Source: a virus
Length of the DNA stretch: 45,229 nucleotides
Direction: 5' to 3' (one strand)
IMG/VR virus record: IMGVR_UViG_3300045971_000674
Span: 1-45,229 of that record
A program made the translations under genes and the position numbers. How positions within the stretch are numbered: the first letter of the stretch is position 1; every line of letters starts with the position of its first letter. The notes below the pieces were generated by a model, which worked only from the letters and a program-made list of their open reading frames with translations, searched no databases and was not told the DNA's origin. This document shows, piece by piece, positions 7,292 through 20,300 of this stretch.

Positions 7292-8938
7292 ATGAAAATC
7301 TTCCAAAGTACCGAGCTATCTCGGCACCCCATTGCTGAAATGGAGGCTGCGACAAAATTCTATGTCGATAGCCAAGTCACCAATGGCGCCATCGTCGGCG
7401 GTCTCTTCTTCACCAACATTGCACCCACTTCTACGGGTATCGTTGGTAGCAAGCAGTACGTCGCTGGCACCACGCCATCCAACATCGTCATCTCTGAAGG
7501 CACCACCGATACCAACAGCGTGACTGTCACGTTGTATGCTGAAGGCGGTTCTGCATTCTTCTCCCCAACAATCACGATCACCACAGTGCCTGCACAGTCT
7601 GGTGGTCCGATCATCGCCACCCTGTCACAGAGCGTGACTGGCGACCGTGTCTACACGGCAACTGCCAACCTCACGAACATCACCGCTGACACCGTCGTCA
7701 ACGCTTCGTCATCGACCAACGCCACTGCAACAACCACGATTCGCCGCGCCGCTGCGGGTCCAGTGCTTGATGTGCTGACAATCGGTGGCTACCCAGGTGC
7801 ACAGACTGCTGTCAAGGCAGGCGACACCGTTACCGTCTCTGGCCGTGTTGCCAACACCGCAACCTACGCCGAAATCGTGGCAGGTGGCGCAGCAGCTTCG
7901 TTGGTCTCCATGACACTGGGTGCTGACAACAGCTTCAGCACTGGCTTCAAGACGATCACCGCAACGGTCACGATCAGCGGTCTCTCAGGTGCTCAGACGG
8001 TTTCTGCTCGTGCACGCAATGCACTCGGTACCTACGGTTCGACCTTCGCATCGACCAACACGATCACGCTTGACCAGGTCTACCCAACCATCGGTGCATT
8101 CTCGATCGCCTACCCAGCCACTCAGTCTGGTTTGAAGACTGGCGAATCGGCAACGGTCACATCGACGGTCACGAACTTCACAACGATCAGCTACTCAGGC
8201 ACGAACCTTTCGATCGGTTCTCCAACGACGTATGCAGCTTCCAAGACTGCTTCGCTGACTGGTGGAACCTACTCGTTCGGTTCCAACAACTACACGATCA
8301 GCGCCAACAAGGCAGCCAACAACTCGACGACGACGACTTCAACTGCCGTGACGATCGCTGCAGTTGCCCCAACCGCTGCAATCACGTACTCGCCAACTGG
8401 TCGCATGCTGTCATCGCCGCTGGGCGTCAGCTACACGGTCACCATCACCGCTGACCAGCGTCTCGCATCTGCACCATCGCTCACTGCTTCTTCTGGCACG
8501 TGGCAAGGTGCATGGACTGGTTCTGGCGCCACTTGGACTCGCGTGCTGAAGATCGTTGACTCTGATCCAAAGGGTTCGCAGACATTCAGCGCACTGTCAA
8601 TGACAGGTCTGGCCAACATGTCCGGTTCGACGATCACATCTGGTGCTTCGTACACTGTTGGTGGCTTCGCTACCCGCACGATCACGTTCCCAGCCTTCGC
8701 TCGCTACGCAGCAATCGGCACGAACATCGTCGACATCACGAAGGTCACCGCATCGTACACCGGCTCCACGGTCCTGACTCGTCAGACCTCGACAGCCGAC
8801 GTGTTCCAAGGTTTCACGATCGTCGACGCAACTGGAACGTACAGCCCAACAGGAGGATACCTGATGATCTCGGACGTTGCATTCGCGGGTTCGAACACAA
8901 CTGGTACACTTCAACTTGACGTGACGGAGGCTGCATAA
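7292..8938 (+). CDS. Thr/Ser/Gly-rich beta (Ig-like) virion surface or fibre protein
   Basis: 548 aa, extremely T/S/A/G-rich with alternating beta-strand patterns (AVKAGDTVTV, TITLDQVYPTI). It has an N-terminal AATKFYVDS fibre-like motif and a late promoter. Confidence 0.65.
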   Translation: MKIFQSTELSRHPIAEMEAATKFYVDSQVTNGAIVGGLFFTNIAPTSTGIVGSKQYVAGTTPSNIVISEGTTDTNSVTVTLYAEGGSAFFSPTITITTVPAQSGGPIIATLSQSVTGDRVYTATANLTNITADTVVNASSSTNATATTTIRRAAAGPVLDVLTIGGYPGAQTAVKAGDTVTVSGRVANTATYAEIVAGGAAASLVSMTLGADNSFSTGFKTITATVTISGLSGAQTVSARARNALGTYGSTFASTNTITLDQVYPTIGAFSIAYPATQSGLKTGESATVTSTVTNFTTISYSGTNLSIGSPTTYAASKTASLTGGTYSFGSNNYTISANKAANNSTTTTSTAVTIAAVAPTAAITYSPTGRMLSSPLGVSYTVTITADQRLASAPSLTASSGTWQGAWTGSGATWTRVLKIVDSDPKGSQTFSALSMTGLANMSGSTITSGASYTVGGFATRTITFPAFARYAAIGTNIVDITKVTASYTGSTVLTRQTSTADVFQGFTIVDATGTYSPTGGYLMISDVAFAGSNTTGTLQLDVTEAA

Positions 8939-9348
8939 TGAGTGCCTTTGAAGACTTCGTCCAGCTTGAACTTCCAAAGCGCCCCTACCTCAGCACTGAC
9001 GTTGCTGAGGAAACTGTCATCGTTCGTCGTGGTGCTGGTCCACGACAGTTGAATGCGGTAACACTTACCAACGGCCAGGTTCTTGGTATGGTTGGTGGTG
9101 TTCTTGTTGGCACTACGGTTGCTTCCCTCGGTAACGGCGTACGCAAAGCCATCTTGAACGTGACGGTTGACGATGCACAGTGGGATATCCCACACGGTTT
9201 GAACTCGACGAACGTGATCGTACAAGTGGTTGATGCTGCTGGGTACGTGATCATTCCGAAGGAGATTCAGATCCTCGATGCGAACAACATCACCGTGTAT
9301 TTCAACACGGCACAGACCGGTACCGCCCGCGTCATCTTCCTCGACTGA
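8938..9348 (+). CDS. Small virion appendage-associated protein
   Basis: 136 aa coupled by TAATG. The WDIPHGLNSTNVIVQVVD...NNITVYF module recurs in phage fibre and structural proteins. Confidence 0.6.
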   Translation: MSAFEDFVQLELPKRPYLSTDVAEETVIVRRGAGPRQLNAVTLTNGQVLGMVGGVLVGTTVASLGNGVRKAILNVTVDDAQWDIPHGLNSTNVIVQVVDAAGYVIIPKEIQILDANNITVYFNTAQTGTARVIFLD

Positions 9349-9419: not shown

Positions 9420-9773
9420 CTATAAATCGCGCGTGGTGGGTGGTGTTGAGTCTCCATCTTCGTCGAACTCGGCACGGAGGATGGCCTTTGCAAGCCACTT
9501 CTTGGCCACCTCGAGTGGAATGCCGTGCACGTTGCTCATCGAGTCGACCTTCTTGCGCTTGCCTTGACCCAAGTTGCGATGCGCATCGCTGTCATCGAGC
9601 CGCTGCAGGTAGAGCTGGACGATGTAACTGTCGCCTGTTGCGCCGTTGGTTCTCGTGTCGAAGAGGAGGAGCAGATGCAGCTCGCCCTGTCGAATGCGGT
9701 AGGACTTGTCATCTGCAATCCAACGTGCGTTGAAGACCTTTCTGAGCATCATGCCCATCTGGATAGTGTTCAT
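9420..9773 (-). CDS. Hypothetical protein
   Basis: 117 aa, ATGA-coupled to the upstream 419-aa gene, with phage-like codon usage. Confidence 0.7.
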   Translation of the reverse strand: MNTIQMGMMLRKVFNARWIADDKSYRIRQGELHLLLLFDTRTNGATGDSYIVQLYLQRLDDSDAHRNLGQGKRKKVDSMSNVHGIPLEVAKKWLAKAILRAEFDEDGDSTPPTTRDL

Positions 9774-11029
9774 GTTGTCACCTTCAGACCTATCTTCTGC
9801 ATGAGGGCTGGCAAGTTGTCGAGGTACTCTTGCGGAACTCCGTCGATGCCATCATGCACCATGATCCCATGGTGGCCAACCTCTTTCCAGATGGCGTAGC
9901 GAGCTTGTCGTTCCCATTCGAAGTAGCCCGAGAACACGAGCTTCTGGTTCGTGCGAGATGGGTGCAGCCCGTATTGGGTGATGCAGACCAGGCGGCGCGC
10001 ATCCGAGTACTGACGGGAGATGCGTCGAAGCCTCATTCCAATTGCGTCGAGGTTCTCCACTGACAGATCATCAGTGGCTTGGATGACGAGGTCTGCAGTG
10101 ACCGAGAATCCATTGTTGCCTGACAGAATGGCGGGAGAGATGCGGGAGCCGTTGGCCAGACTCATGCACAGCTTCTTGACGATCGAGATGTTCTCGTCGG
10201 TCCATTGCAGACCCATGAGAGCACACAGCTCTTGGCGGAATGCTTGCTTGTCCTTCACTGAGCGCACGATGTCAGGATAGAAGAGCAGAATTCGCTCCTC
10301 CGACTCCGTGCGCTGGAGTTGTGACAGGAGGTATTGGGTGTAAGCGGCCTCGATATCGATGCCCGGGCCGAACAGTTGCTCACGTAACCATGCTGGCCAG
10401 GTCTCGATTGCAGCGACCGGCCACACAGAGGTGTCACGTTGCTGCAGCTTGCCAGATCGTTGGAAGATGAAGTTGACCTCGGTCTGTCGAAGCAACCAGT
10501 CGGTGGCTGCACGCAGGTCGGCACGATTCTCTTCAGCGAGGCGAAGTCGAATCGTCTCGGCGTTCTGCTGTTGGATGTGTACCTTGGAGATGGTCCCATC
10601 ATCCGGCCGTTCTGGCGGAACGTAGAGGAGACCGAGACGGATCATGCCCTCACCGAAGTTTCGGCCACCAGCTGGGGCGTACTCGATGTTCTTGGGGATG
10701 AGGGTGGAGACCTCATGCGCACCTTCACCGAAGTTGAAGCCGATCTGCTTCACCTCGAAGAAGTAGTCAAGCACGACGCGGTAGTCGTGTACCCAATCAC
10801 GCAGCGTCATCAGCCGGAACGGCACCTCACAGAAAGCACGTGGCTTGTTGGAGATGGCGCAGTGTTTGACAGCAGTGGCGTGGAGCTGCGCGAGATAGAG
10901 GATCAAGTCCTGCCGATCTTGCATCTTGCTGCGGTGTCGCCGCTGCTTGTCAGGGTAGAAGTTGCAGACATGCAGCGGGTCTGCGGGGTGCAGATCCCGA
11001 TTGGCTCTGACCTTGTAGACCGTGGTCAC
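9770..11029 (-). CDS. Divergent family-A/T7-like polymerase-fold protein (TV-Pol-like)
   Basis: 419 aa with ordered motifs SGKLQQR, GIDIEAAY (motif A-like), KKLCMSLANG (motif B-like), YFEWERQ and IMVHDGI (motif C-like). GTG start coupled to the upstream ORF. Confidence 0.6.
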   Translation of the reverse strand: MTTVYKVRANRDLHPADPLHVCNFYPDKQRRHRSKMQDRQDLILYLAQLHATAVKHCAISNKPRAFCEVPFRLMTLRDWVHDYRVVLDYFFEVKQIGFNFGEGAHEVSTLIPKNIEYAPAGGRNFGEGMIRLGLLYVPPERPDDGTISKVHIQQQNAETIRLRLAEENRADLRAATDWLLRQTEVNFIFQRSGKLQQRDTSVWPVAAIETWPAWLREQLFGPGIDIEAAYTQYLLSQLQRTESEERILLFYPDIVRSVKDKQAFRQELCALMGLQWTDENISIVKKLCMSLANGSRISPAILSGNNGFSVTADLVIQATDDLSVENLDAIGMRLRRISRQYSDARRLVCITQYGLHPSRTNQKLVFSGYFEWERQARYAIWKEVGHHGIMVHDGIDGVPQEYLDNLPALMQKIGLKVTT

Positions 11030-11175
11030 TTTGCCGTGCTTGCTGCCGAAAGTCGCTCGAGTTCTGCACGCACCTGATGCAGGCGGTTGAGCAGTTCGGC
11101 GTGGGTAGTCGGTCGTTGCGCAGCGTAGCTCTGCATCTTGATGATGTAGTCGCGCATGTGTTCGTAGTTGTCCAT
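11026..11175 (-). CDS. Small hypothetical helical protein (49 aa)
   Basis: Below the ORF-track cut-off: MDNYEHMRDYIIKMQSYAAQRPTTHAELLNRLHQVRAELERLSAASTAK. It exactly fills the gap, with TGATG and GTGA overlaps at its two ends. Confidence 0.7.
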   Translation of the reverse strand: MDNYEHMRDYIIKMQSYAAQRPTTHAELLNRLHQVRAELERLSAASTAK

Positions 11176-11582
11176 CACTTGGTCCTCATGATCGCCATGG
11201 CCAGATCGTGGTACTCACGGTGAAAGCGCTGCTCCTTGGCAGCGCGGTTCTTCTGGGCGGTGTTCATCCATTCCCAGGCCCGACCCGCTTCGGCCTGAGC
11301 GGCCACGTAGTCCTGCGGTTCACCGCGCTTCGTGGGCAGGCGGGTGATGTCCTCGAGCCGTTGGCACAGCTCCTTGATCTTCTTCTCGCAGGCCTCGCGC
11401 TTCTCGACCAGCTCGGGCGCCACCTTGTAGAGGTCGCCTGTGACACGGCTGCGCGTGGCAACGGTGGCGATGATGAAGTGGTCGAGCATCGTCTCTTCCA
11501 TCTTCAGCTCGGCCAGCAGTCGAGTACGCTCCTTGCCTTCACCACTTCGGGCGGGGCATTCGCGGTAGTGTGCATAGCTCAT
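11175..11582 (-). CDS. Hypothetical coiled-coil protein
   Basis: 135 aa with an AAGGA RBS and strong GC3 codon bias. First gene after an extended -10 promoter. Confidence 0.75.
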   Translation of the reverse strand: MSYAHYRECPARSGEGKERTRLLAELKMEETMLDHFIIATVATRSRVTGDLYKVAPELVEKREACEKKIKELCQRLEDITRLPTKRGEPQDYVAAQAEAGRAWEWMNTAQKNRAAKEQRFHREYHDLAMAIMRTK

Positions 11583-11604: not shown

Positions 11605-11613
11605 ATTATATCA
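11605..11613 (-). promoter_or_regulatory. Sigma70-type extended -10 promoter (TGaTATAAT), probably early
   Basis: The minus strand reads GTGATATAATGG about 23 nt upstream of the 11582 start. No good -35 element. Confidence 0.6.
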
Positions 11614-11889
11614 CGCAACCGAGCGCTTGAGTTGCTTGTAGATGCCCTTCAGGCTGTCCTCACGCACCAACAGTTGGTAGGTGGGCGGATTGAAGGGATC
11701 GGTGGGGAATGGGTTCTCGCCTGGCAAGACACCCTTCGGGTCGGAATGGATGCTCGAGGCACTCAGCTTCGTTCCACCGTGCTTGATCACCTTGTAGCCG
11801 GCTTCCTTGATGTCCTTGCCCTGCTCGGACAAACTGACAGCCAACCCCATAGCTGCGCGACGCAGCCGCTTTGCTTGTCTACCGTTCAT
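11611..11889 (-). CDS. Small basic hypothetical protein (92 aa)
   Basis: Start re-assigned to MNGRQAKRLRR (ATG at 11887-11889), immediately after the stop of the 197-aa gene. It ends with KGIYKQLKRSVA. Confidence 0.7.
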   Translation of the reverse strand: MNGRQAKRLRRAAMGLAVSLSEQGKDIKEAGYKVIKHGGTKLSASSIHSDPKGVLPGENPFPTDPFNPPTYQLLVREDSLKGIYKQLKRSVA

Positions 11890-11890
11890 G

Positions 11891-12484
11891 TCACATGATC
11901 CCAGAGTAGCGTGGGTTGATGGTCGTATCGACCCAGTCTGGGATGTAGCCCAGGTTGGTGCGATAGAAGAGCACTTCCCAGTTTGTAGCCGAAGCCGTCC
12001 CAAGCTTCGACAGCTTCGGGCGGACGATGATGAACTTCACTTCATCGGGCTGGCGCAGTCCACGTACAACGATAGGAGTCGCGACACCACCGATTGAGAT
12101 GATTGTATCACCGCTGCCACCAGATTGCAGCGAAAATGCAGGTAGCGGGAGCTGGATGGAGTGCACTACTGATGGGTGCGGGGTCGGCAGGGCTCTCAGC
12201 CCCTTCGTCTGTTCGCAGAACCTGACGATGGAGTTGAGGAAGGCGAAGTAGGTGAAGTCATTCACACCACTCTGACGGATGATCTGTCGTAGCGTTTCCT
12301 TGTCGGGTGGTGTGTAGTGTTTGGCTGATCGTTGACGGGCATTGTAGGGCCCGAGAAACTCGACAGCCTGTGACAGCATGTTGTAGTGGTGACCGATGAC
12401 GGGGATCAGGTCAGAGAAGCCGTGCTCATTCGCAGGCCGCTGCGCATCGAGCCGAACGGCCCAGCGTGGGAGAGTTGATTCCAT
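11891..12484 (-). CDS. Hypothetical protein resembling the N-terminal (WED/REC) half of TnpB, with no RuvC
   Basis: 197 aa. AVRL...HYN, P...S.Q, IISIGGV..IVVRG...VKFIIVR...WEV follow the order of TnpB N-lobe motifs. The CDS is well supported, the family call is tentative. Confidence 0.45.
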   Translation of the reverse strand: MESTLPRWAVRLDAQRPANEHGFSDLIPVIGHHYNMLSQAVEFLGPYNARQRSAKHYTPPDKETLRQIIRQSGVNDFTYFAFLNSIVRFCEQTKGLRALPTPHPSVVHSIQLPLPAFSLQSGGSGDTIISIGGVATPIVVRGLRQPDEVKFIIVRPKLSKLGTASATNWEVLFYRTNLGYIPDWVDTTINPRYSGIM

Positions 12485-12486
12485 GA

Positions 12487-13083
12487 TTAGGCTGGTTGAA
12501 ACCAGAAGTCGGGAAACTTGAGGAGGTCCTCAAGGTAGTGGATTGCGAGGGTCCGGGCGAAAGGTGCTCGTCCGGTCAGGGTAAAGAGCGCAGTTGGTGC
12601 GAATGCAGCCCGGCTCTTGTCATGGTAGATGTCAAATGCCACGAAGATTGGCGTGTGATTCCATTTGAAGATGAGGAGCGGGTTCTTCTCGATCTTCTTG
12701 GCATCGACGACGATCTCCTCATACCACTTCCAGACATTGGCAGTGCCTGAGGCGAGTGAGGTGAAGTTGTCAGGTGTAGCGTAGGACTTGCACTCGATCG
12801 CATGCAGGAAGGTCAGACCCTCCTTGCGTTCGTTCACGGGCACCACGTCGCCGACAAAGATCTTGAGGGCATCTTCGCCAAGCATCTGTCCAAGGGTCTC
12901 GAAGTTCTTACCGCCTACGCGAGCGCCAGAACCAGGTGTACGCATGAAGTTGAGGGGTTGCAAACCTGCGATTAGCTTCTTGGCGACGGTGCCTTCGAAG
13001 CCGTTGCCCTTGGCCTTGCCGCCGCCAGGTCGCATCTTGCGTTTGGCGGGTTTAAGCGCCACAGGTTTTTCTGTATCAGCCAT
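12487..13083 (-). CDS. PD-(D/E)xK nuclease, Holliday junction resolvase-like
   Basis: 198 aa with KAKGNGFE, RTPGSGA, GDVV and IECKSY...W, the Hjc-like phage resolvase pattern. Confidence 0.8.
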   Translation of the reverse strand: MADTEKPVALKPAKRKMRPGGGKAKGNGFEGTVAKKLIAGLQPLNFMRTPGSGARVGGKNFETLGQMLGEDALKIFVGDVVPVNERKEGLTFLHAIECKSYATPDNFTSLASGTANVWKWYEEIVVDAKKIEKNPLLIFKWNHTPIFVAFDIYHDKSRAAFAPTALFTLTGRAPFARTLAIHYLEDLLKFPDFWFQPA

Positions 13084-13112: not shown

Positions 13113-13118
13113 TATTTA
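13113..13118 (-). promoter_or_regulatory. Late promoter TAAATA upstream of the resolvase
   Basis: GTAAATAC on the minus strand 30 nt upstream of the 13083 start. Confidence 0.55.
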
Positions 13119-13136
13119 CAACCTACCCAACCTGTT

Positions 13137-14750: not shown

Positions 14751-14822
14751 ATAAATAGCTGTGTGCCACGGGTTGCAGCCCTGCACACTCTAGTTCGAGA
14801 AGGGAACCAGCATGACTATTTA
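14751..14822 (+). promoter_or_regulatory. Late promoter and structured 5' leader of the GIY-YIG gene
   Basis: ATAAATA at 14751-14757, then a GTGTGC...GCACAC stem enclosing GGGTTGCAGCCC, then a GTTC-GAGAAGG-GAAC hairpin over the RBS. A reverse TAAATAG lies at 14816-14822. Confidence 0.6.
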
Positions 14823-15597
14823 CAGCATCTACCGCCTGACCAACATCCTGACAGGTAAGGTCTACATCGGTAAGACAACCACCGCTCTGAAAAATCGGCT
14901 GAAGGGTCATCTTCGTGATGTGTCCGAGGGTGCGCAGACAATTCTGCACCGATCAATCCGCAAGCATGGCTTCAGCAACTTTACCGCAGAAGTCATCTTC
15001 AACTGTTTTCGGGAAGAAGATCTGTCTGACATGGAGAAGTTCTTCATTGTTGAACACGACTGCTGTCTACTAGATGGCAAAGACAAAGGTTACAACATGA
15101 CCCGAGGTGGTGAAGGCTTCTCATCCGAAGAGGCTGGAAATCTAGCACACCGTTTACTTGAAGAGGGTAAGCATCCATGGCAAGGAGAACGTGGATCAGA
15201 AATGGCGAAGGTCCGAGAAGCAAAGAAACTTGCCGAAGGCAGACATCACCTTGCAGGAGAAGCTTCATTCGATCTTCATAGTCGAATAGCTAAGGCTCGA
15301 GTTGCAGCTGGAACACACAATCTTCAGGGTCCAGCTGGCGCAGCTAAAACATCTGAGCAGCAGAAAGCGCTCGTGTCCTCAGGAAAGCATGTCCTACAAG
15401 GTGAACGTGGTAAGGCAATGCACGCTAGACTTCTAGCAGAAGGTAAGCACCCCGGTAAGAAGGTCTATGACTGCCCGAACTGTGGCAGATCTGGCAAGGG
15501 AAACCGGTTCAAAGGTTTCCACTTTGCCAAATGCAAGTCACTCACCAATCACGCTCGAGAAGCCGTTCTCTTTGCGAATAACGATCTCGCGATCTAG
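14812..15597 (+). CDS. Free-standing GIY-YIG homing endonuclease (Seg-like)
   Basis: IYSIY...KVYIGKT, conserved R and E, GYNMTRGG, repeated GxH units and a C-terminal CPNC...H...C zinc finger. Antisense to all flanking genes. Confidence 0.92.
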   Translation: MTIYSIYRLTNILTGKVYIGKTTTALKNRLKGHLRDVSEGAQTILHRSIRKHGFSNFTAEVIFNCFREEDLSDMEKFFIVEHDCCLLDGKDKGYNMTRGGEGFSSEEAGNLAHRLLEEGKHPWQGERGSEMAKVREAKKLAEGRHHLAGEASFDLHSRIAKARVAAGTHNLQGPAGAAKTSEQQKALVSSGKHVLQGERGKAMHARLLAEGKHPGKKVYDCPNCGRSGKGNRFKGFHFAKCKSLTNHAREAVLFANNDLAI

Positions 15598-17277
15598 TCT
15601 GCCCTGAATTGCTGGGTGATGGCTAATGACAAATATGGACATGTCTTCATCACGGCTCTTCTCCTTCAGCACCCGCACAATTGCATCGATCCCGTTCTGG
15701 TCGAGGGCACCATCAAGCTCGTCGATGAGCATGAGATTTGCGCGTGCATGAAGGTGATGTAGCACATCTCGGAAAGCCAGCATGAGTGCGGTGTTCACCC
15801 GCTTCTTCTCACCTGCTGACAGGTTCCCGAAGTCCAGCTCACGACCGAACTCGGCCACCGTGCAGGACATGTCGGCATCAAACTTCACCACGTGCGGCAG
15901 ACCAAGAGTCTGCGTGTAGTGGTTCAGCCGGCCGTTCAGGAACGGAATGGTCTGGTTGATGATGCGCCGACGGAGGAAGGAGTTCTTGTCCGTGAGAAGC
16001 TTGAGCAGGAAGTTCTGGTGGTCGAGACGCCGGCGAAGAACGTCTACCTTCAGCGTATCCACCACAGCAACGCGTTCCTTCTGGAGCTTGTCACGTGCCT
16101 CGGTGTGTGGGTTCGTGGCGGTCTTGAGCATCGCCAGCTTCTGACGGAGGGCAGCCGCATTCTCACGGGCCTTCAACAGGTCGTCGAAGTCGGGGTGCTG
16201 GATGGCTGCATCTACTTCGGTGAGGCGTGTCTTCTTTGCTGCTGCTTGGGCAGTCAACTCGTCGACTCGGCCCTCAACCTCAAGCAGCTTGTTGCCCTTG
16301 GTTTCCAGATCCACGTCAACCTTGGCCAACTTTGCAGGTGCATCAGCGAATGCTTGCGTGCAGTACGGGCACTTGGCTTCCACCAAGTGGGTCTGCTCAG
16401 CCATCAGCTGCTCAACATCGAGGGTGAGCTGAACCTTGTCCTTGCGGAGTGGGGCAAGCTTGGCAGCCAGGTAGGCGCCCTCTTCCTTGAGCGTGTGGCG
16501 CTCATCGTGCAGCGCCTTCTCGGTATCGAAGTTGACCGTTTCCAGGGCAGCGAGAGTCTCTTCAATCTCGGCGATGTCGGCTTGGCGTGTGGTGTTCCAC
16601 CGTTCGATGCGAACCTCTGCCTCGCGCACGTGCTTCTTGTGCACATCGACAGCGACCTGTTGCTGGACGCAGACAGCCTCGGCAACCTTGATGTCACCTT
16701 CAGTTGCCTTCACCTTCTCCTTGAGGAGCTTGGCCTTCTCGGAGAGCATCGTGATGTTGAACAGCTCTTCGATCTGGTTCCGCTGTTGGTGGATCGGAAG
16801 CTGGAGGAAGGCCTGCGAGTTGCCCGAGAAGATGATGGTTTTCGTGAAGAGCTCGTAGGAGATGCCGATGATGTCTTCAATCAGGTGGTCGCATTCTGTC
16901 ACGCCCTTGCCTGGGGTGATGTCCTCGCCGTCCTTGCGGATCTCGATGCGGTAGTCTTCGCCGCGAGCACGATAGATCTCGTACTCGATGCCATCCTTCT
17001 CAAAGCAGAGCCGCACCTCCATGAGGGTGTTCTTGGTAGCGTTCGTGCTGTTGATCAGACGCTGCAGCGAGATGCTGTCGAACGGCTTGTTGTAGAGCGC
17101 ATAGCAGACGGCATTGATGATCGTCGTCTTGCCAGCACCGTTCGATCCACCGATATCGACGTTCTCGCCAGTCACCATGACGGTGCCTTGGTCATTGAGT
17201 TCGATGACTTGCGGGCTGTTGCCGAACGAGAGGAAGTTCTTGATCTCGATCGTCTTGAAGATCAGTGGGATGCTCAT
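15538..17277 (-). CDS. gp46: Recombination endonuclease ATPase subunit, T4 gp46 / SbcC / Rad50-like
   Basis: IKNFLSFGN, Walker A NGAGKTT, zinc hook CPYC in a coiled coil, signature LSAGEK, Walker B LIDE and H-loop ISHH. Confidence 0.96.
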   Translation of the reverse strand: MSIPLIFKTIEIKNFLSFGNSPQVIELNDQGTVMVTGENVDIGGSNGAGKTTIINAVCYALYNKPFDSISLQRLINSTNATKNTLMEVRLCFEKDGIEYEIYRARGEDYRIEIRKDGEDITPGKGVTECDHLIEDIIGISYELFTKTIIFSGNSQAFLQLPIHQQRNQIEELFNITMLSEKAKLLKEKVKATEGDIKVAEAVCVQQQVAVDVHKKHVREAEVRIERWNTTRQADIAEIEETLAALETVNFDTEKALHDERHTLKEEGAYLAAKLAPLRKDKVQLTLDVEQLMAEQTHLVEAKCPYCTQAFADAPAKLAKVDVDLETKGNKLLEVEGRVDELTAQAAAKKTRLTEVDAAIQHPDFDDLLKARENAAALRQKLAMLKTATNPHTEARDKLQKERVAVVDTLKVDVLRRRLDHQNFLLKLLTDKNSFLRRRIINQTIPFLNGRLNHYTQTLGLPHVVKFDADMSCTVAEFGRELDFGNLSAGEKKRVNTALMLAFRDVLHHLHARANLMLIDELDGALDQNGIDAIVRVLKEKSRDEDMSIFVISHHPAIQGRLDREIVIRKENGFSSVIGE

Positions 17278-17609
17278 GCTTGTAGTTCCAGAAAATCTGA
17301 CATCTTGACAAGGCTGATGGTGAACGTCTTGGCCTCTTCAGCTTCTTGCACGAAGCTGGAGTAAATGCCGGCCATGATGCCAGACATGTGCTCGTTGTTC
17401 TTGTGGCAGAGGTACGTTGATCCACTTGACTGCGGCATGGTGTAGAGCACGTCGCCAACGTCCACGCCTTCAATGCCTGAACTCAGCTTCCACGAATCGC
17501 CAGTGGTGTAACCGCCGTACCAACTTGCAAGCACCTTGTAGACCTTGCCGTGTTCTTGCGAGTCAAGCAAGACGATGACCCAGGAATCGGGTTGGTATGC
17601 GCGGCTCAT
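17274..17609 (-). CDS. Conserved phage hypothetical protein
   Basis: The YQPDSWV...YKVLASWYGGYTTGDSWKLSSGI...SSGSTY.C pattern recurs in T4-like phages. The start at 17609 is favoured by the ATGA overlap. Confidence 0.8.
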   Translation of the reverse strand: MSRAYQPDSWVIVLLDSQEHGKVYKVLASWYGGYTTGDSWKLSSGIEGVDVGDVLYTMPQSSGSTYLCHKNNEHMSGIMAGIYSSFVQEAEEAKTFTISLVKMSDFLELQA

Positions 17610-17908
17610 CGGTGCATCCACATTTCGATTGTGACGTTGCCATCACCGAAATCGGTGATCTTGGTTTCGTCTGCACACACGAGATACGAGTTGATGGTGT
17701 TCACCAGCGCCGGAACATTGATGCAGTCTAGCGCCGACTTTGGCTTTATCTCGATATGCGTCCACTGCGGTTCAGCAATCTTGGGAATATATGGACAGTA
17801 GAAGAATCCCCCGCCTTCAACTTGCGTTGCGAGACCAGTGAACGGCAACTCGTCAACTACCACTAGGGAGTTAACACGGGCAGGGTGACGCTTAGATAGG
17901 ATCTTCAT
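17606..17908 (-). CDS. Hypothetical protein with a GFFYCPYIP motif
   Basis: 100 aa with ATGA overlaps at both ends. The motif resembles the C-terminal segment of T4 gp23-family capsid proteins. Confidence 0.65.
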   Translation of the reverse strand: MKILSKRHPARVNSLVVVDELPFTGLATQVEGGGFFYCPYIPKIAEPQWTHIEIKPKSALDCINVPALVNTINSYLVCADETKITDFGDGNVTIEMWMHR

Positions 17909-19008
17909 GATAGTTCCTCGTAGAGCTTGATGAGGGTTTCAGGATCGATGGTCGGTGAGGGCGCTACGCCCTCAGTGATAAGCTTCCGTACCGTGTTGTC
18001 GAGTGAGGTCAGATCGATCTCGCCTTCCAACTCCAGTCCTTCGCTCAGTAGTTCCTTGCGGGCGAGGATGTCTTCCTCAACCGAGAACTCACGAAGCTGA
18101 AGACCCGTCAGCATCTCCTCGCGCAGAGCCTGCACGTCTGAGTAGCCGATGTCCATGTCCAGCAAGCACCGCACTCGGCTCCGTGGTGGAAATTCGCAGT
18201 CCCCGTCCAGCACTCGACTCAGTCTCGTCTTGAAGAACAGCGGAGCTTCTTCCCAGTCATGGAAGTAGACGTCCTCTTCCTCGAGGTTGAAGATGGCGCA
18301 ACCGCGTTCTTTGTCACCTGCATCGCCGAAGTTCGTGGGGAACGTGTTGCCGATGTAGATGATGTTCTTGTTGGCTTGGCGCTTGTGGAAGTGGCCAGAG
18401 AAGATGTACTTCGGACCGGCGAAGTCCTCAGCATCCGGTCCATGTTCCATCCGACGGTCAGCACCGGTCACCACGAAGTCGCGGAACTCGAAGTGACCGA
18501 GCACGTACTTGTGGGAGTTGATGTCCTTGACCAGACCTGGGTACTCGTCCTTGAAGAGATATGGCGTTGCGAAGATGTCCTTCGAGATCTCCATGGGCTC
18601 GCTCACGATCAGGAAGTTCGCGAGGTCACTGAACATGTCAGTCGAGAAGATGGTTCGGTTGGCGCGGTGGTAGAGGTCGTGGTTGCCCACGATCCAGATG
18701 ATCGGAACACCAACTGCATTCAGTCGACGGCATGCTTCAGTGGCATGCTTCATCGTGCGCACATTGATGGCATTGCGGTTCTCGAAGAAGTCTCCGAGGA
18801 ACGCGATGCAGTCCACCTTCTCAGTCTTGCAGATCCCGATGAACCAGTCGATGTAGTCGAGGTTGTCGAGGTTGTGCAGATCCGAGTTGTTCCGCGCGCC
18901 GAAGTGGATGTCGGTGAACATCGCCATCTTCTTGATCTTGCGATAGTCCCCGAGCTTGCCACCACCCAGCCGGCTGTTGTAGCCTCCTGTGATGATCTCC
19001 ATGCTCAC
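17905..19008 (-). CDS. gp47: Recombination endonuclease nuclease subunit, T4 gp47 / SbcD / Mre11-like
   Basis: Metallophosphoesterase motifs DIHFG, LGDFF, GNHD, GHFE and SGHFH. An alternative ATG start at 19002 has a better-spaced GGGGAG RBS. Confidence 0.95.
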   Translation of the reverse strand: MSMEIITGGYNSRLGGGKLGDYRKIKKMAMFTDIHFGARNNSDLHNLDNLDYIDWFIGICKTEKVDCIAFLGDFFENRNAINVRTMKHATEACRRLNAVGVPIIWIVGNHDLYHRANRTIFSTDMFSDLANFLIVSEPMEISKDIFATPYLFKDEYPGLVKDINSHKYVLGHFEFRDFVVTGADRRMEHGPDAEDFAGPKYIFSGHFHKRQANKNIIYIGNTFPTNFGDAGDKERGCAIFNLEEEDVYFHDWEEAPLFFKTRLSRVLDGDCEFPPRSRVRCLLDMDIGYSDVQALREEMLTGLQLREFSVEEDILARKELLSEGLELEGEIDLTSLDNTVRKLITEGVAPSPTIDPETLIKLYEELS

Positions 19009-19478
19009 TCCCCAGAAGTGTTGGTCTGGGATGTGAATGCGGTTTCGTCAGAGGTCTTGCCGCGCGAACGATCTTGGTAGGAGAAGGATGGATTGGCACC
19101 AGCTTCTACCAGCAGGTTGTCGCGAATGTCGCGCTGCTTCTTCTCATCAGCAAGGTACTGAAGGAAGGAACGGTACGCGGCCGTCGTGTAGAAGGCAAAT
19201 GGATTGTCCGACTTGGCAGGATCGAACTTGTACCAGTTGGCGCACAGGTTCACCACGGCAAAGCTCACCATGTCCTCGCGGAAAGAGTATCCGGCAAAGG
19301 AAGGGCTGTACGAGTAGCGCTCGGCGATCATGTGCAGGTACTTCGCCAACTTCGACGAGAGTACCCGACCGTTCGCTTTGTCCTCCGCGATAGCTTCGAG
19401 AAGCTGCGCGTTGGTCACGTAGTGACCGCGAGTTGTTGTCGATCGTGGCTTTTTGTAAACTGTGGGCTTGGTCGCCAT
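19005..19478 (-). CDS. gp55: Late transcription sigma factor, T4 gp55-like
   Basis: HYVTN..L, F.GYSFREDMV, KFDPAKSDNPFAFYT...SFLQYLADEKKQ are gp55 motifs. The gp55-gp47-gp46 synteny matches T4. Confidence 0.92.
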   Translation of the reverse strand: MATKPTVYKKPRSTTTRGHYVTNAQLLEAIAEDKANGRVLSSKLAKYLHMIAERYSYSPSFAGYSFREDMVSFAVVNLCANWYKFDPAKSDNPFAFYTTAAYRSFLQYLADEKKQRDIRDNLLVEAGANPSFSYQDRSRGKTSDETAFTSQTNTSGE

Positions 19479-19607: not shown

Positions 19608-20300
19608 ATGCATGACGAAGACCTTTACGAAGCCAAAGCCAAGAAGACCGTTGGCGTGCAAAACAAGCGCGCGGTGGTTTCACCTGGTCGCTTCCAGCCG
19701 CCCACCCGGGGTCACTTCAAGATGATCGGGGCCATGAAGGCTTTCATCCGTGATAACCCAGAAATGCGTCTAGACAAGGCCATCGTTGTTGTAATCGCCG
19801 GCGAAAAGACCGGTGAAGACAAGGTCAAGAACCCTCTCACTGCTGAACAACGGAAGAGCTACATCGAAGCTTCAGGCAAAGCCAATGGGGTGTTGGTCCT
19901 GACTGCAAGCAACGTCTTCGCCGCCTTCGAGGAGGTTCGCAAGGCTGGCTATGAACCGATCGCTGTTGCTGCCGGCTCTGATCGTTCCCCTGGTTACCTG
20001 AAGATGCTGGACAAGTACTACACTGCCAAGGATGGTAGTCCCATTGTACACCATGTGGTGCCTGATCTGGCTCGCGACCAGGATGACAGTGACGATGGTG
20101 ATGCCTACTTTGATAAGGTCATCGACATGATCAATGACGGTGACAAGGTTGACGATGCGCAGATTAGCGCATCCCTTGCTCGCTACGCAGCCCGCAAGGG
20201 TGAAGACAAGGCCTTCGCCTACATTGCTGGCTTGGAAGATAAGCCGAAACTGGCTCTGAAGATTCAGGCCAACATCAACTCAGCCGGTAAGGTAGTCTGA
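19608..20300 (+). CDS. Cytidylyltransferase-like (HxGH) nucleotidyltransferase
   Basis: PGRFQPPTRGH, KNPLT, AGSDR and ISAS are the pattern of the T4-like phage 'cytidyltransferase' family. Confidence 0.85.
   Translation: MHDEDLYEAKAKKTVGVQNKRAVVSPGRFQPPTRGHFKMIGAMKAFIRDNPEMRLDKAIVVVIAGEKTGEDKVKNPLTAEQRKSYIEASGKANGVLVLTASNVFAAFEEVRKAGYEPIAVAAGSDRSPGYLKMLDKYYTAKDGSPIVHHVVPDLARDQDDSDDGDAYFDKVIDMINDGDKVDDAQISASLARYAARKGEDKAFAYIAGLEDKPKLALKIQANINSAGKVV

Follow-up and report, generated by a model that had tools for sequence, protein, structure and literature searches.

Divergent family-A DNA polymerases (PolA) that supplement another replicase have been described from several groups of viruses. 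Yutin et al. (2024, PMC11348598) report divPolA2 from barbaviruses, ICP1 and Vibrio phage 1.063.O (AUR84708) and propose it to be a repair DNA polymerase or an RNA polymerase. The TV-Pol family (Iyer, Abhiman and Aravind 2008, PMC2579912) includes virophage forms fused to D5 as well as CcPol. In group 2.2 jumbo phages, a minimal split PolC (Pol III) is accessory to PolB; Iyer et al. (2021, PMC7824862) propose that it serves repair or one-strand synthesis. The gene treated here lies in a stretch of viral DNA of 45,229 nucleotides (the window), which is the first 45 kb of the 131-kb IMG/VR record IMGVR_UViG_3300045971_000674, estimated to be 36% complete. It encodes a protein of 419 amino acids (aa) that a preliminary description of the window had taken for a stand-alone, TV-Pol-like polymerase of the family-A/T7 type. 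With a probability of about 0.5, the protein is a late accessory, proofreading-free DNA polymerase of the family-A fold that fills short gaps or extends 3′ ends.

9770..11029, minus strand: gene for a predicted minimal family-A-fold polymerase of 419 aa, single copy, belonging to an unannotated family (open reading frame, AlphaFold model, and Foldseek, VIA and BFVD matches)

The open reading frame (ORF) starts with GTG, and this start overlaps the stop of a 50-aa ORF (11026-11178); its own stop overlaps the start of a 117-aa ORF (9420-9773). The protein had no match in PHROGs, Pfam or the PDB, by sequence or by profile, and a Pfam scan of 39 family members was likewise negative. Among metagenomic proteins, 248 matched the query at E <= 0.001; the best 120 of these are mostly 405-423 aa long and are unnamed or labelled "hypothetical". 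Relatives of the gene are encoded at 50 IMG/VR loci. A tblastn search of 50,697 cultured or GenBank phage records with the 419-aa query returned no match, and 185,579 prokaryote genomes yielded only three family matches, all on 5-14 kb contigs of metagenome-assembled genomes, which are probably mis-binned phage DNA. No fused long form was found among 7,999 scored candidates of 841-2,400 aa, a result rated as weak evidence by the tool's own note. These searches agree with the earlier view of a stand-alone gene without an exonuclease or helicase domain.

Two alignments were examined. Alignment A1 held 115 sequences: besides the query, it contained 114 homologues with 52-69% identity to it, taken from the 119 listed after exclusion of five that were shorter; alignment A2 held 39 sequences from the window and the IMG/VR loci, with 34-66% identity. 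Residues R198, D225, R265, K285, M289, N293, G294, E373, H392, D393 and D396 are invariant in both (115/115 and 39/39). The motifs quoted in the preliminary description, SGKLQQR (residues 192-198), GIDIEAAYTQYL (223-234), KKLCMSLANG (285-294), YFEWERQ (369-375) and IMVHDGID (389-396), are real and follow the order given there. The invariance of their key residues, including both catalytic-type Asp (D225 and D393), places them beyond chance.

An AlphaFold2 model based on A1 had a predicted local distance difference test score of 93.1 and a predicted template-modelling score of 0.87. All 48 rows listed by Foldseek against the PDB were family-A DNA polymerases; the best E-value was 0.017, and no row reached E <= 0.001. 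VIA-align, run on 832 of Foldseek's own candidates, gave Z-scores in the range of 9.5-11.2; Pol theta scored 11.2, KlenTaq 10.5 and T7 DNA polymerase (DNAP) 10.1. The VIA alignments spanned about 240-250 residues at a root-mean-square deviation of 4-5 Å and were confined to residues 137-419. In BFVD, 10 rows had E <= 0.001, the best being an uncharacterised Caudovirales protein (E 1.4e-8, template-modelling score (TM) 0.50); lower rows included Zamilon and Qinghai Lake virophage replication proteins, and Aeromonas and Rheinheimera phage proteins that match divPolA2 by organism and length. The Atlas model search returned TV-Pol-like and DNA_pol_A clusters (TM 0.41-0.49). DSSP assigns D225 to a strand (223-226) and D393 to a turn that is flanked by two strands (389-391 and 394-396), which is the canonical placement. 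A fold of the superfamily of family-A polymerases and T7 RNA polymerase (RNAP) is well supported for the modelled protein because the structure searches of the PDB, BFVD and Atlas agree, not because of any single strong score. A comparison with Pol I, T7 DNAP and T7 RNAP had been proposed with the original assignment; its structural part, a palm/fingers match by Foldseek and VIA, came out in favour of that assignment, whereas hhalign comparisons with Klenow and T7 RNAP were non-significant.

The first ~135 residues constitute an extra domain for which VIA found no polymerase match.

10694..10933, minus strand: N-terminal extra domain, residues 33-112, modelled as a long helix, a strand, two helices and strand-wing-strand (DSSP, alignments)

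Residues R39, Q40, F90, F91 and G97 of this domain are invariant. The order of its secondary-structure elements appears winged-helix-like in the model, and a domain of this kind would provide duplex-DNA binding.

The active-site motifs were compared side by side with fetched sequences of Pol I, T7 DNAP, T7 RNAP and divPolA2; D+5 denotes the fifth residue after the motif-A Asp.

10436..10453, minus strand: pre-motif-A hairpin G193-K/R194-L-x-x-R198, counterpart of Pol I G667-R668 (alignment, motif comparison)
10340..10357, minus strand: motif A, D225-I-[DE]-[SA]-A-Y230, with D225 invariant and Tyr/Phe at D+5 (alignments, motif comparison)
10145..10177, minus strand: motif B, K285-x3-M289-S-L-A-N293-G-S, near T7 RNAP K631-RSV-M-T-L-A-Y639-G-S, with an invariant Asn at the Tyr site (alignments, 11-mer scoring)
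9842..9856, minus strand: motif C, H392-D393-G-I-D396, with H392, D393 and D396 invariant (alignments)

TV-Pols have an absolutely conserved Arg on the pre-palm hairpin; in the 419-aa family the G-R position of the hairpin is Lys in 33 and Arg in 6 of 40, and the invariant R198 stands four residues further on. Motif A of the query reads D225-I-E-A-A-Y230; D+5 is Tyr in 36 and Phe in 3 of the 39 A2 sequences, Glu in Pol I, T7 DNAP and divPolA2, and Gly (Gly542) in T7 RNAP. The D+5 position acts as the sugar gate, and an aromatic residue there, as in PolB, excludes ribonucleoside triphosphates (rNTPs); in T7-type RNA polymerases, rNTPs are selected with Gly at D+5 and a Tyr in motif B. The Tyr/Phe at the likely gate would favour deoxynucleoside triphosphates (dNTPs) over rNTPs.

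In motif B, the T7 RNAP 11-mer scored 27.3 at position 285 and 5.8 at its next best placement, and only 4 of the 872 T7 RNAP 11-mers reach such a score at any position. For the Pol I 11-mer, 285 was again the best placement, but a weak one (9.9; 308/917 as high). At position 281, the site of the motif-B Arg, 86 of 115 A1 sequences have Ile, and the 39 in A2 include 18 with Ile, 9 with Arg and 3 with Lys; RxxxK is thus not kept. The Asn at the motif-B Tyr position, which had been remarked upon in the query, was present in every homologue (N293 in 115/115 and 39/39), and it is therefore a family trait, not a quirk of one copy. The change from which altered substrate selection had been suspected is real, but the aromatic residue accompanying it at the likely motif-A gate would point to dNTPs, not rNTPs. 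The combination of a T7-RNAP-like motif B, Asn for Tyr and an aromatic gate is absent from all four polymerases compared.

With the family-A DNA polymerases (Pol I Klenow/Taq/Bst, Pol theta, T7 gp5), the protein shares the palm/fingers fold over residues 137-419 and the motif order hairpin-A-B-C; the spacing from A to B is 60 residues as against 47-53, and that from B to C is 108 as against 124-132. It differs from them in lacking a 3′-5′ exonuclease, in carrying Tyr where they have the gate Glu, Asn where their motif B has Tyr and HDG in place of HDE, and in its extra N-terminal domain. Neither R-x3-K-x7-Y-G (Arg in 9/39, Asn for Tyr in 39/39) nor D-x4-E (D+5 Tyr in 36, Phe in 3) is kept, and PF00476 (DNA_pol_A) matched 0/39 members and nothing in the phage's own genome. 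The motif-B pattern K-x3-M-[ST]-L-A-x-G-S is shared with the T7-type single-subunit RNA polymerases; unlike them, the protein is less than half as long and carries Tyr for Gly542 and Asn for Tyr639, and no RNAP appeared among the structural matches listed.

A length of about 430 aa, an exonuclease-free PolA palm, an unrelated N-terminal domain and occurrence in addition to a PolB replicase are features in common with divPolA2 (PMC11348598). Over its whole length, the model matched a 434-aa protein of Aeromonas 4L372D (E 8e-3) and a 435-aa protein of Barba31A (E 1.3e-2), both of which agree with divPolA2 in organism and length. The hhalign comparisons with one and with 8 divPolA2 members were non-significant (E 0.16-0.5), the profiles being shallow and the control of divPolA2 against PolA itself reaching only E 0.002. 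GGR, Glu at D+5 and the motif-B Tyr are retained in divPolA2, which has paralogues and variable neighbourhoods; the 419-aa family, in contrast, carries Tyr at D+5 and Asn in place of the motif-B Tyr, and it occurs as one copy at a constant position within a recombination block of 300-370 kb phages.

With TV-Pol (PMC2579912) the protein likewise shares a catalytic core of family A that is minimal, has the two Asp and is not fused to a nuclease, and the BFVD matches to the Zamilon and Qinghai Lake virophage proteins lie over the C-terminal part. Departures from TV-Pol are the mostly absent RxxxK Arg (Arg in 9/39), inheritance together with core genes rather than mobility, and a position adjoining nucleases, which is said never to occur for TV-Pols. 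No D5 helicase, resolvase-integrase or transposase was found among the 34 window proteins; the neighbours at the other loci were clustered only, not domain-scanned. For what looks like a vertically kept, single-copy gene with no D5-helicase, integrase or transposase context, the family label "TV-Pol" was not sustained. The 419-aa family lacks some of the tested features of each known group: those of canonical PolA, the RxxxK and the mobile or D5 context of TV-Pol, the sequence homology, gate Glu and motif-B Tyr of divPolA2, and those of T7 RNAP. It is most fittingly treated as a new family of the PolA superfamily. No description of it was found in the literature searched, a search whose coverage excluded most subscription papers. 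The surprise is tempered by the fact that "extra" divergent PolAs in phages had already been described in 2024.

The genes of the window are T4-like (portal, baseplate, gp55 sigma, gp46 and gp47) and indicate a T4-like jumbo myophage; judged by the portal, its closest cultured phage is Ralstonia phage RsoM2USA (48%). Sizes of up to 343-368 kb, with terminal repeats, are attained by related contigs, and the clade is one of 300-370 kb phages. PolB is encoded in the phage's own genome (genome positions 73,027-75,870) and in 11/11 related genomes; the protein is thus distinct from the main replicase, as had been anticipated. A gp41 helicase was present in 5/5 near-complete relatives, with an adjacent gp61-type primase in 5/5 (phrog_47, E 6e-37). 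With T4 gp61 as the direct query, the primase was detected in 1/7 genomes, and a second query with that match recovered it in 5/5; a search of the phage's own 36%-complete record with T4 gp61 gave no match. Because the near-complete relatives encode this primase beside gp41, the 419-aa protein is not needed as a primase, and the suggestion that it might be one became less likely. A ~190-aa PF07733 (PolC-family) piece was also found in 5/5 near-complete relatives; it fits the split PolC described for group 2.2 jumbo phages (PMC7824862), and the PolC fold differs (Pol beta-like). The 419-aa family is a third polymerase on top of PolB and the PolC piece, and all three families (PolB, the ~190-aa PolC-family piece and the PolA-fold protein) occur together in each of the near-complete genomes G001, G002, G004, G005 and G006. 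An unannotated polymerase family, confined to metagenomes, is thus retained in single copy by 300-370 kb phages of one clade, in addition to the PolB, primase and PolC piece that they encode. As a separate observation, the PolB match of two relatives lies in two open frames (G002:C1:246837-249098, 587+482 aa; G008:C1:54942-56630, 600+415 aa), which suggests from the sequence that their PolB is split or contains an intron; several gp46 and portal genes in the loci are likewise enlarged or split.

The gene neighbourhood was tabulated for 32 loci with at least 8 kb upstream, some of them near-duplicates, using labels from single-linkage BLAST clusters.

11611..12003, minus strand: small conserved ORF of the h79 family, which probably starts further downstream, near 11888; in relatives it mostly lies next to the polymerase on its upstream side (28/32 loci)
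11891..12484, minus strand: h197, a conserved 197-aa hypothetical gene of the same block (26/32 loci; homologue in RsoM2USA)
12487..13083, minus strand: PD-(D/E)XK/RusA-like Holliday-junction resolvase, with which the putative late transcript would begin (phrog_244, E 1.2e-14; PF24608, E 3.2e-20)
15538..19478, minus strand: gp55 late sigma, gp47 (SbcD) and gp46 (SbcC), the upstream DNA-end-processing block (PHROG scan; 28, 30 and 31 of 32 loci, respectively)

Upstream of the polymerase, gp46 was found at 31 of these loci, gp47 at 30, gp55 at 28, a resolvase-type gene at 30, h197 at 26 and the small h79/h84 ORF at 28. The resolvase slot holds the PD-(D/E)XK type at 22 and an endoVII-like type at 9 of the 32 loci; the endoVII label is our tentative reading of the sequence of the alternative gene. 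Downstream, the gp26 hub gene, normally convergent, is present at 38/43 loci. No Pfam, PHROG, PDB or Atlas match was found for h197; our impression is that it may resemble a nucleic-acid-binding lobe of TnpB/Cas12. The pairwise identities of the polymerase track those of gp46 (n = 29, rho 0.85), gp47 (n = 26, rho 0.90) and gp26 (n = 35, rho 0.89), with 0/499 permutations as high, and the gene is single-copy in 5/5 near-complete genomes. On these comparisons it appears to be vertically kept, unlike the mobile TV-Pols. An exception to the usual order was noted at L047:1-495, where a family member is convergent with the resolvase-h197 block instead of downstream of it. The PD-(D/E)XK resolvase and the endoVII-like gene were also seen to substitute for each other at one position (loci L004-L048), each usually behind TAAATA, and L043 has both.

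RsoM2USA keeps the order gp46, resolvase, h197 homologue (RsoM2USA_373, E 5e-16), small ORF and gp26. The slot of the polymerase is taken by a 1.4-kb stretch without a long ORF (L052:19625-21025; RsoM2USA 251,624-253,024). No polymerase remnant was found in any of the six frames of this slot, and no profile match in the whole genome. Since this viable relative does without the gene, the gene is accessory. The 1.4-kb stretch begins with a 36-bp hairpin, contains two nested inverted repeats about 250 nt apart, and had no Rfam match; it is possibly a non-coding RNA or an origin-like element. The idea that h197 is an obligate partner or subunit of the polymerase was rejected, as h197 is absent at 6/32 loci and is present without the polymerase in RsoM2USA.

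A T4-late-promoter-like site was located 30 nt upstream of the resolvase start.

13113..13120, minus strand: TGTAAATA, T4-late-promoter-like site (position before the resolvase; TAAATA enrichment in relatives)

The designation of TGTAAATA and TAAATA as late-promoter-like refers to the T4 late consensus. TAAATA was counted in 30 unique loci from 120 nt upstream to 30 nt inside each gene. It precedes 13/19 PD-(D/E)XK resolvase genes, 9/10 endoVII-like genes and, among the tail genes, 21/25 gp26 and 21/23 tape measure genes. The corresponding counts are 0/31 for gp46 ORFs, 1/23 for h197 and 0/30 for the polymerase genes, with 371/6,000 background windows (6%). Each of the 30 loci has a TAAATA within 6 kb, but at a background of 6% per 150 nt this carries no information and was set aside. 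No minus-strand terminator-like site was found between 13,120 and 9,770. Because TAAATA stands before the resolvase and no terminator-like site intervenes, a single late transcript covering the resolvase, h197, h79 and the polymerase is the simplest reading.

The proposed role can be put as follows. The resolvase upstream would cut branched phage DNA arising from recombination-dependent replication, leaving gaps and 3′ ends, and the 419-aa polymerase, presumably co-transcribed and co-expressed with it, would fill short gaps or extend those ends late in infection, before ligation and packaging. It would in this way take part in the debranching and sealing of recombination-generated concatemers ahead of packaging. 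Catalysis would be of the two-metal type, with D225 and D393 as the presumed catalytic pair, and the Tyr/Phe at the motif-A gate would set a preference for dNTPs. The missing exonuclease, the short thumb region and the frequent loss of the motif-B Arg suggest an enzyme of low fidelity or processivity.

Several points weigh against this proposal. None of the hhalign comparisons, whether with Klenow, a 13-sequence PolA set, the divPolA2 set or T7 RNAP, reached significance; the PDB Foldseek E-values are weak (best 0.017), and since the protein is largely helical, its Z of about 11 falls short of the caution line of 13 given for the tool. The residue equivalences, that of the gate residue included, were drawn from DSSP and the order of the motifs instead of from a superposition. 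In motif B the protein resembles T7 RNAP more than Pol I, which fits an RNA-making enzyme; judged from the motif, the Arg missing in most members and the Asn for Tyr could cripple templated synthesis. The PolC-family piece (5/5) could perform repair synthesis instead. Two loci, L032 and L033, carry the polymerase gene away from gp46/gp47; neighbourhoods in jumbo phages can be kept for operon reasons alone, and co-transcription over 3.3 kb is assumed.

Other explanations were considered against the same evidence. A TV-Pol/CcPol-type primase-polymerase could start DNA (or RNA) chains de novo, for example for restart at recombination intermediates, possibly with a neighbouring small protein as a single-strand-binding (SSB) subunit. 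The exonuclease-free minimal PolA core resembles that of TV-Pol (PMC2579912) and of the PolA-SSB primases (10.1101/2022.12.02.518924); the BFVD matches include a replication protein of Zamilon (E 1.8e-3) and a helicase/primase/polymerase of the Qinghai Lake virophage (E 1.6e-2), the top Atlas structure neighbour is a cluster with D5_N in 38% of its members (TM 0.49), and h197 and h79 are conserved upstream. This explanation appears unlikely, given the gp61-type primase beside gp41 in 5/5 near-complete relatives, the late type of the promoter signal, the lack of a helicase among the 34 window proteins scanned, and the distribution of h197 over the 32 loci and RsoM2USA set out above. PolA-SSB (CcPol-MP) primases have an obligate adjacent OB-fold partner and a helicase; no helicase adjoins the 419-aa gene. 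It is quite improbable that the protein is a miniature single-subunit RNA polymerase (T7/N4-like) whose N-terminal domain recognises specific sites at which short RNAs or primers are made. Motif B, K-x3-M-S-L-A-N-G-S, closely matches T7 RNAP K631-G640, the extra N-terminal domain is of helix-turn-helix-like order, and the same option is raised for divPolA2 by Yutin et al. (PMC11348598). Against this stand Tyr/Phe at D+5 as opposed to Gly542, Asn at the RNAP Tyr639 site, and the gp55 late sigma of the phage, which implies use of the host RNAP; no RNA polymerase occurred among the 48 listed Foldseek or 50 listed VIA rows, the latter being a rescoring of Foldseek candidates and so no exclusion.

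A specialised nucleotidyltransferase, as had been contemplated from the start, might tail ends without a template, join ends by microhomology in the manner of Pol theta, or incorporate modified nucleotides as a counter-defence. The invariant Asn in place of the template-stacking motif-B Tyr and the frequent loss of the Arg would alter the nascent-base-pair pocket; the extra invariant acidic D396 and the basic K261/R265 are family-specific; the gene adjoins end-processing nucleases; and the top VIA rows were Pol theta (Z 11.2, within 1 Z of KlenTaq). This rank is a tie and carries no signal, however, and the conserved template-binding hairpin motif (G193-K/R194, R198) suits templated synthesis, while the conserved block contains no nucleotide-modification gene; we regard such an activity as doubtful. 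A more speculative extension, which we hold to be a long shot, is that in a lineage with three polymerase families (A-fold, B and C) an enzyme with a T7-RNAP-type fingers motif and a PolB-type Tyr sugar gate starts or joins DNA without a normal primer-template at ends cut by the resolvase or gp46/47. Its activity would then be the phage counterpart of end joining by Pol theta, and the enzyme would stand as a living intermediate between the DNA and the RNA polymerases of family A. Finally, the non-significant profile comparisons, the weak PDB Foldseek E-values and the loss of RxxxK and the Tyr would suit a catalytically dead polymerase-fold protein that binds DNA or acts as a decoy, or a wrong fold assignment. 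Even at 34% identity the two Asp, the His and the Lys do not vary, and the structure matches are unanimous across the PDB, BFVD (best E 1.4e-8) and Atlas; either possibility is very unlikely. Relative to these readings, the late accessory gap-filling polymerase is preferred.

At 419 aa the protein should be easy to express, and the choices between dNTPs and rNTPs and between primed and unprimed synthesis in family-A enzymes would be directly testable with it; it may also prove a useful compact polymerase.

Further genes were noted in the window. A GIY-YIG homing endonuclease is encoded on the opposite strand just downstream of gp46 (14812-15597, plus strand; phrog_314, E 9e-26). A cytidylyltransferase-like protein heads the baseplate operon, divergent from gp55 (19608-20300, plus strand), and belongs to a 23-locus cluster. 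Between the gp26 operon and the polymerase (7292-9348, plus strand) lie genes for a 548-aa tail-associated protein and a 136-aa protein, which are shared by only some relatives (L006, L008, L013, L029).

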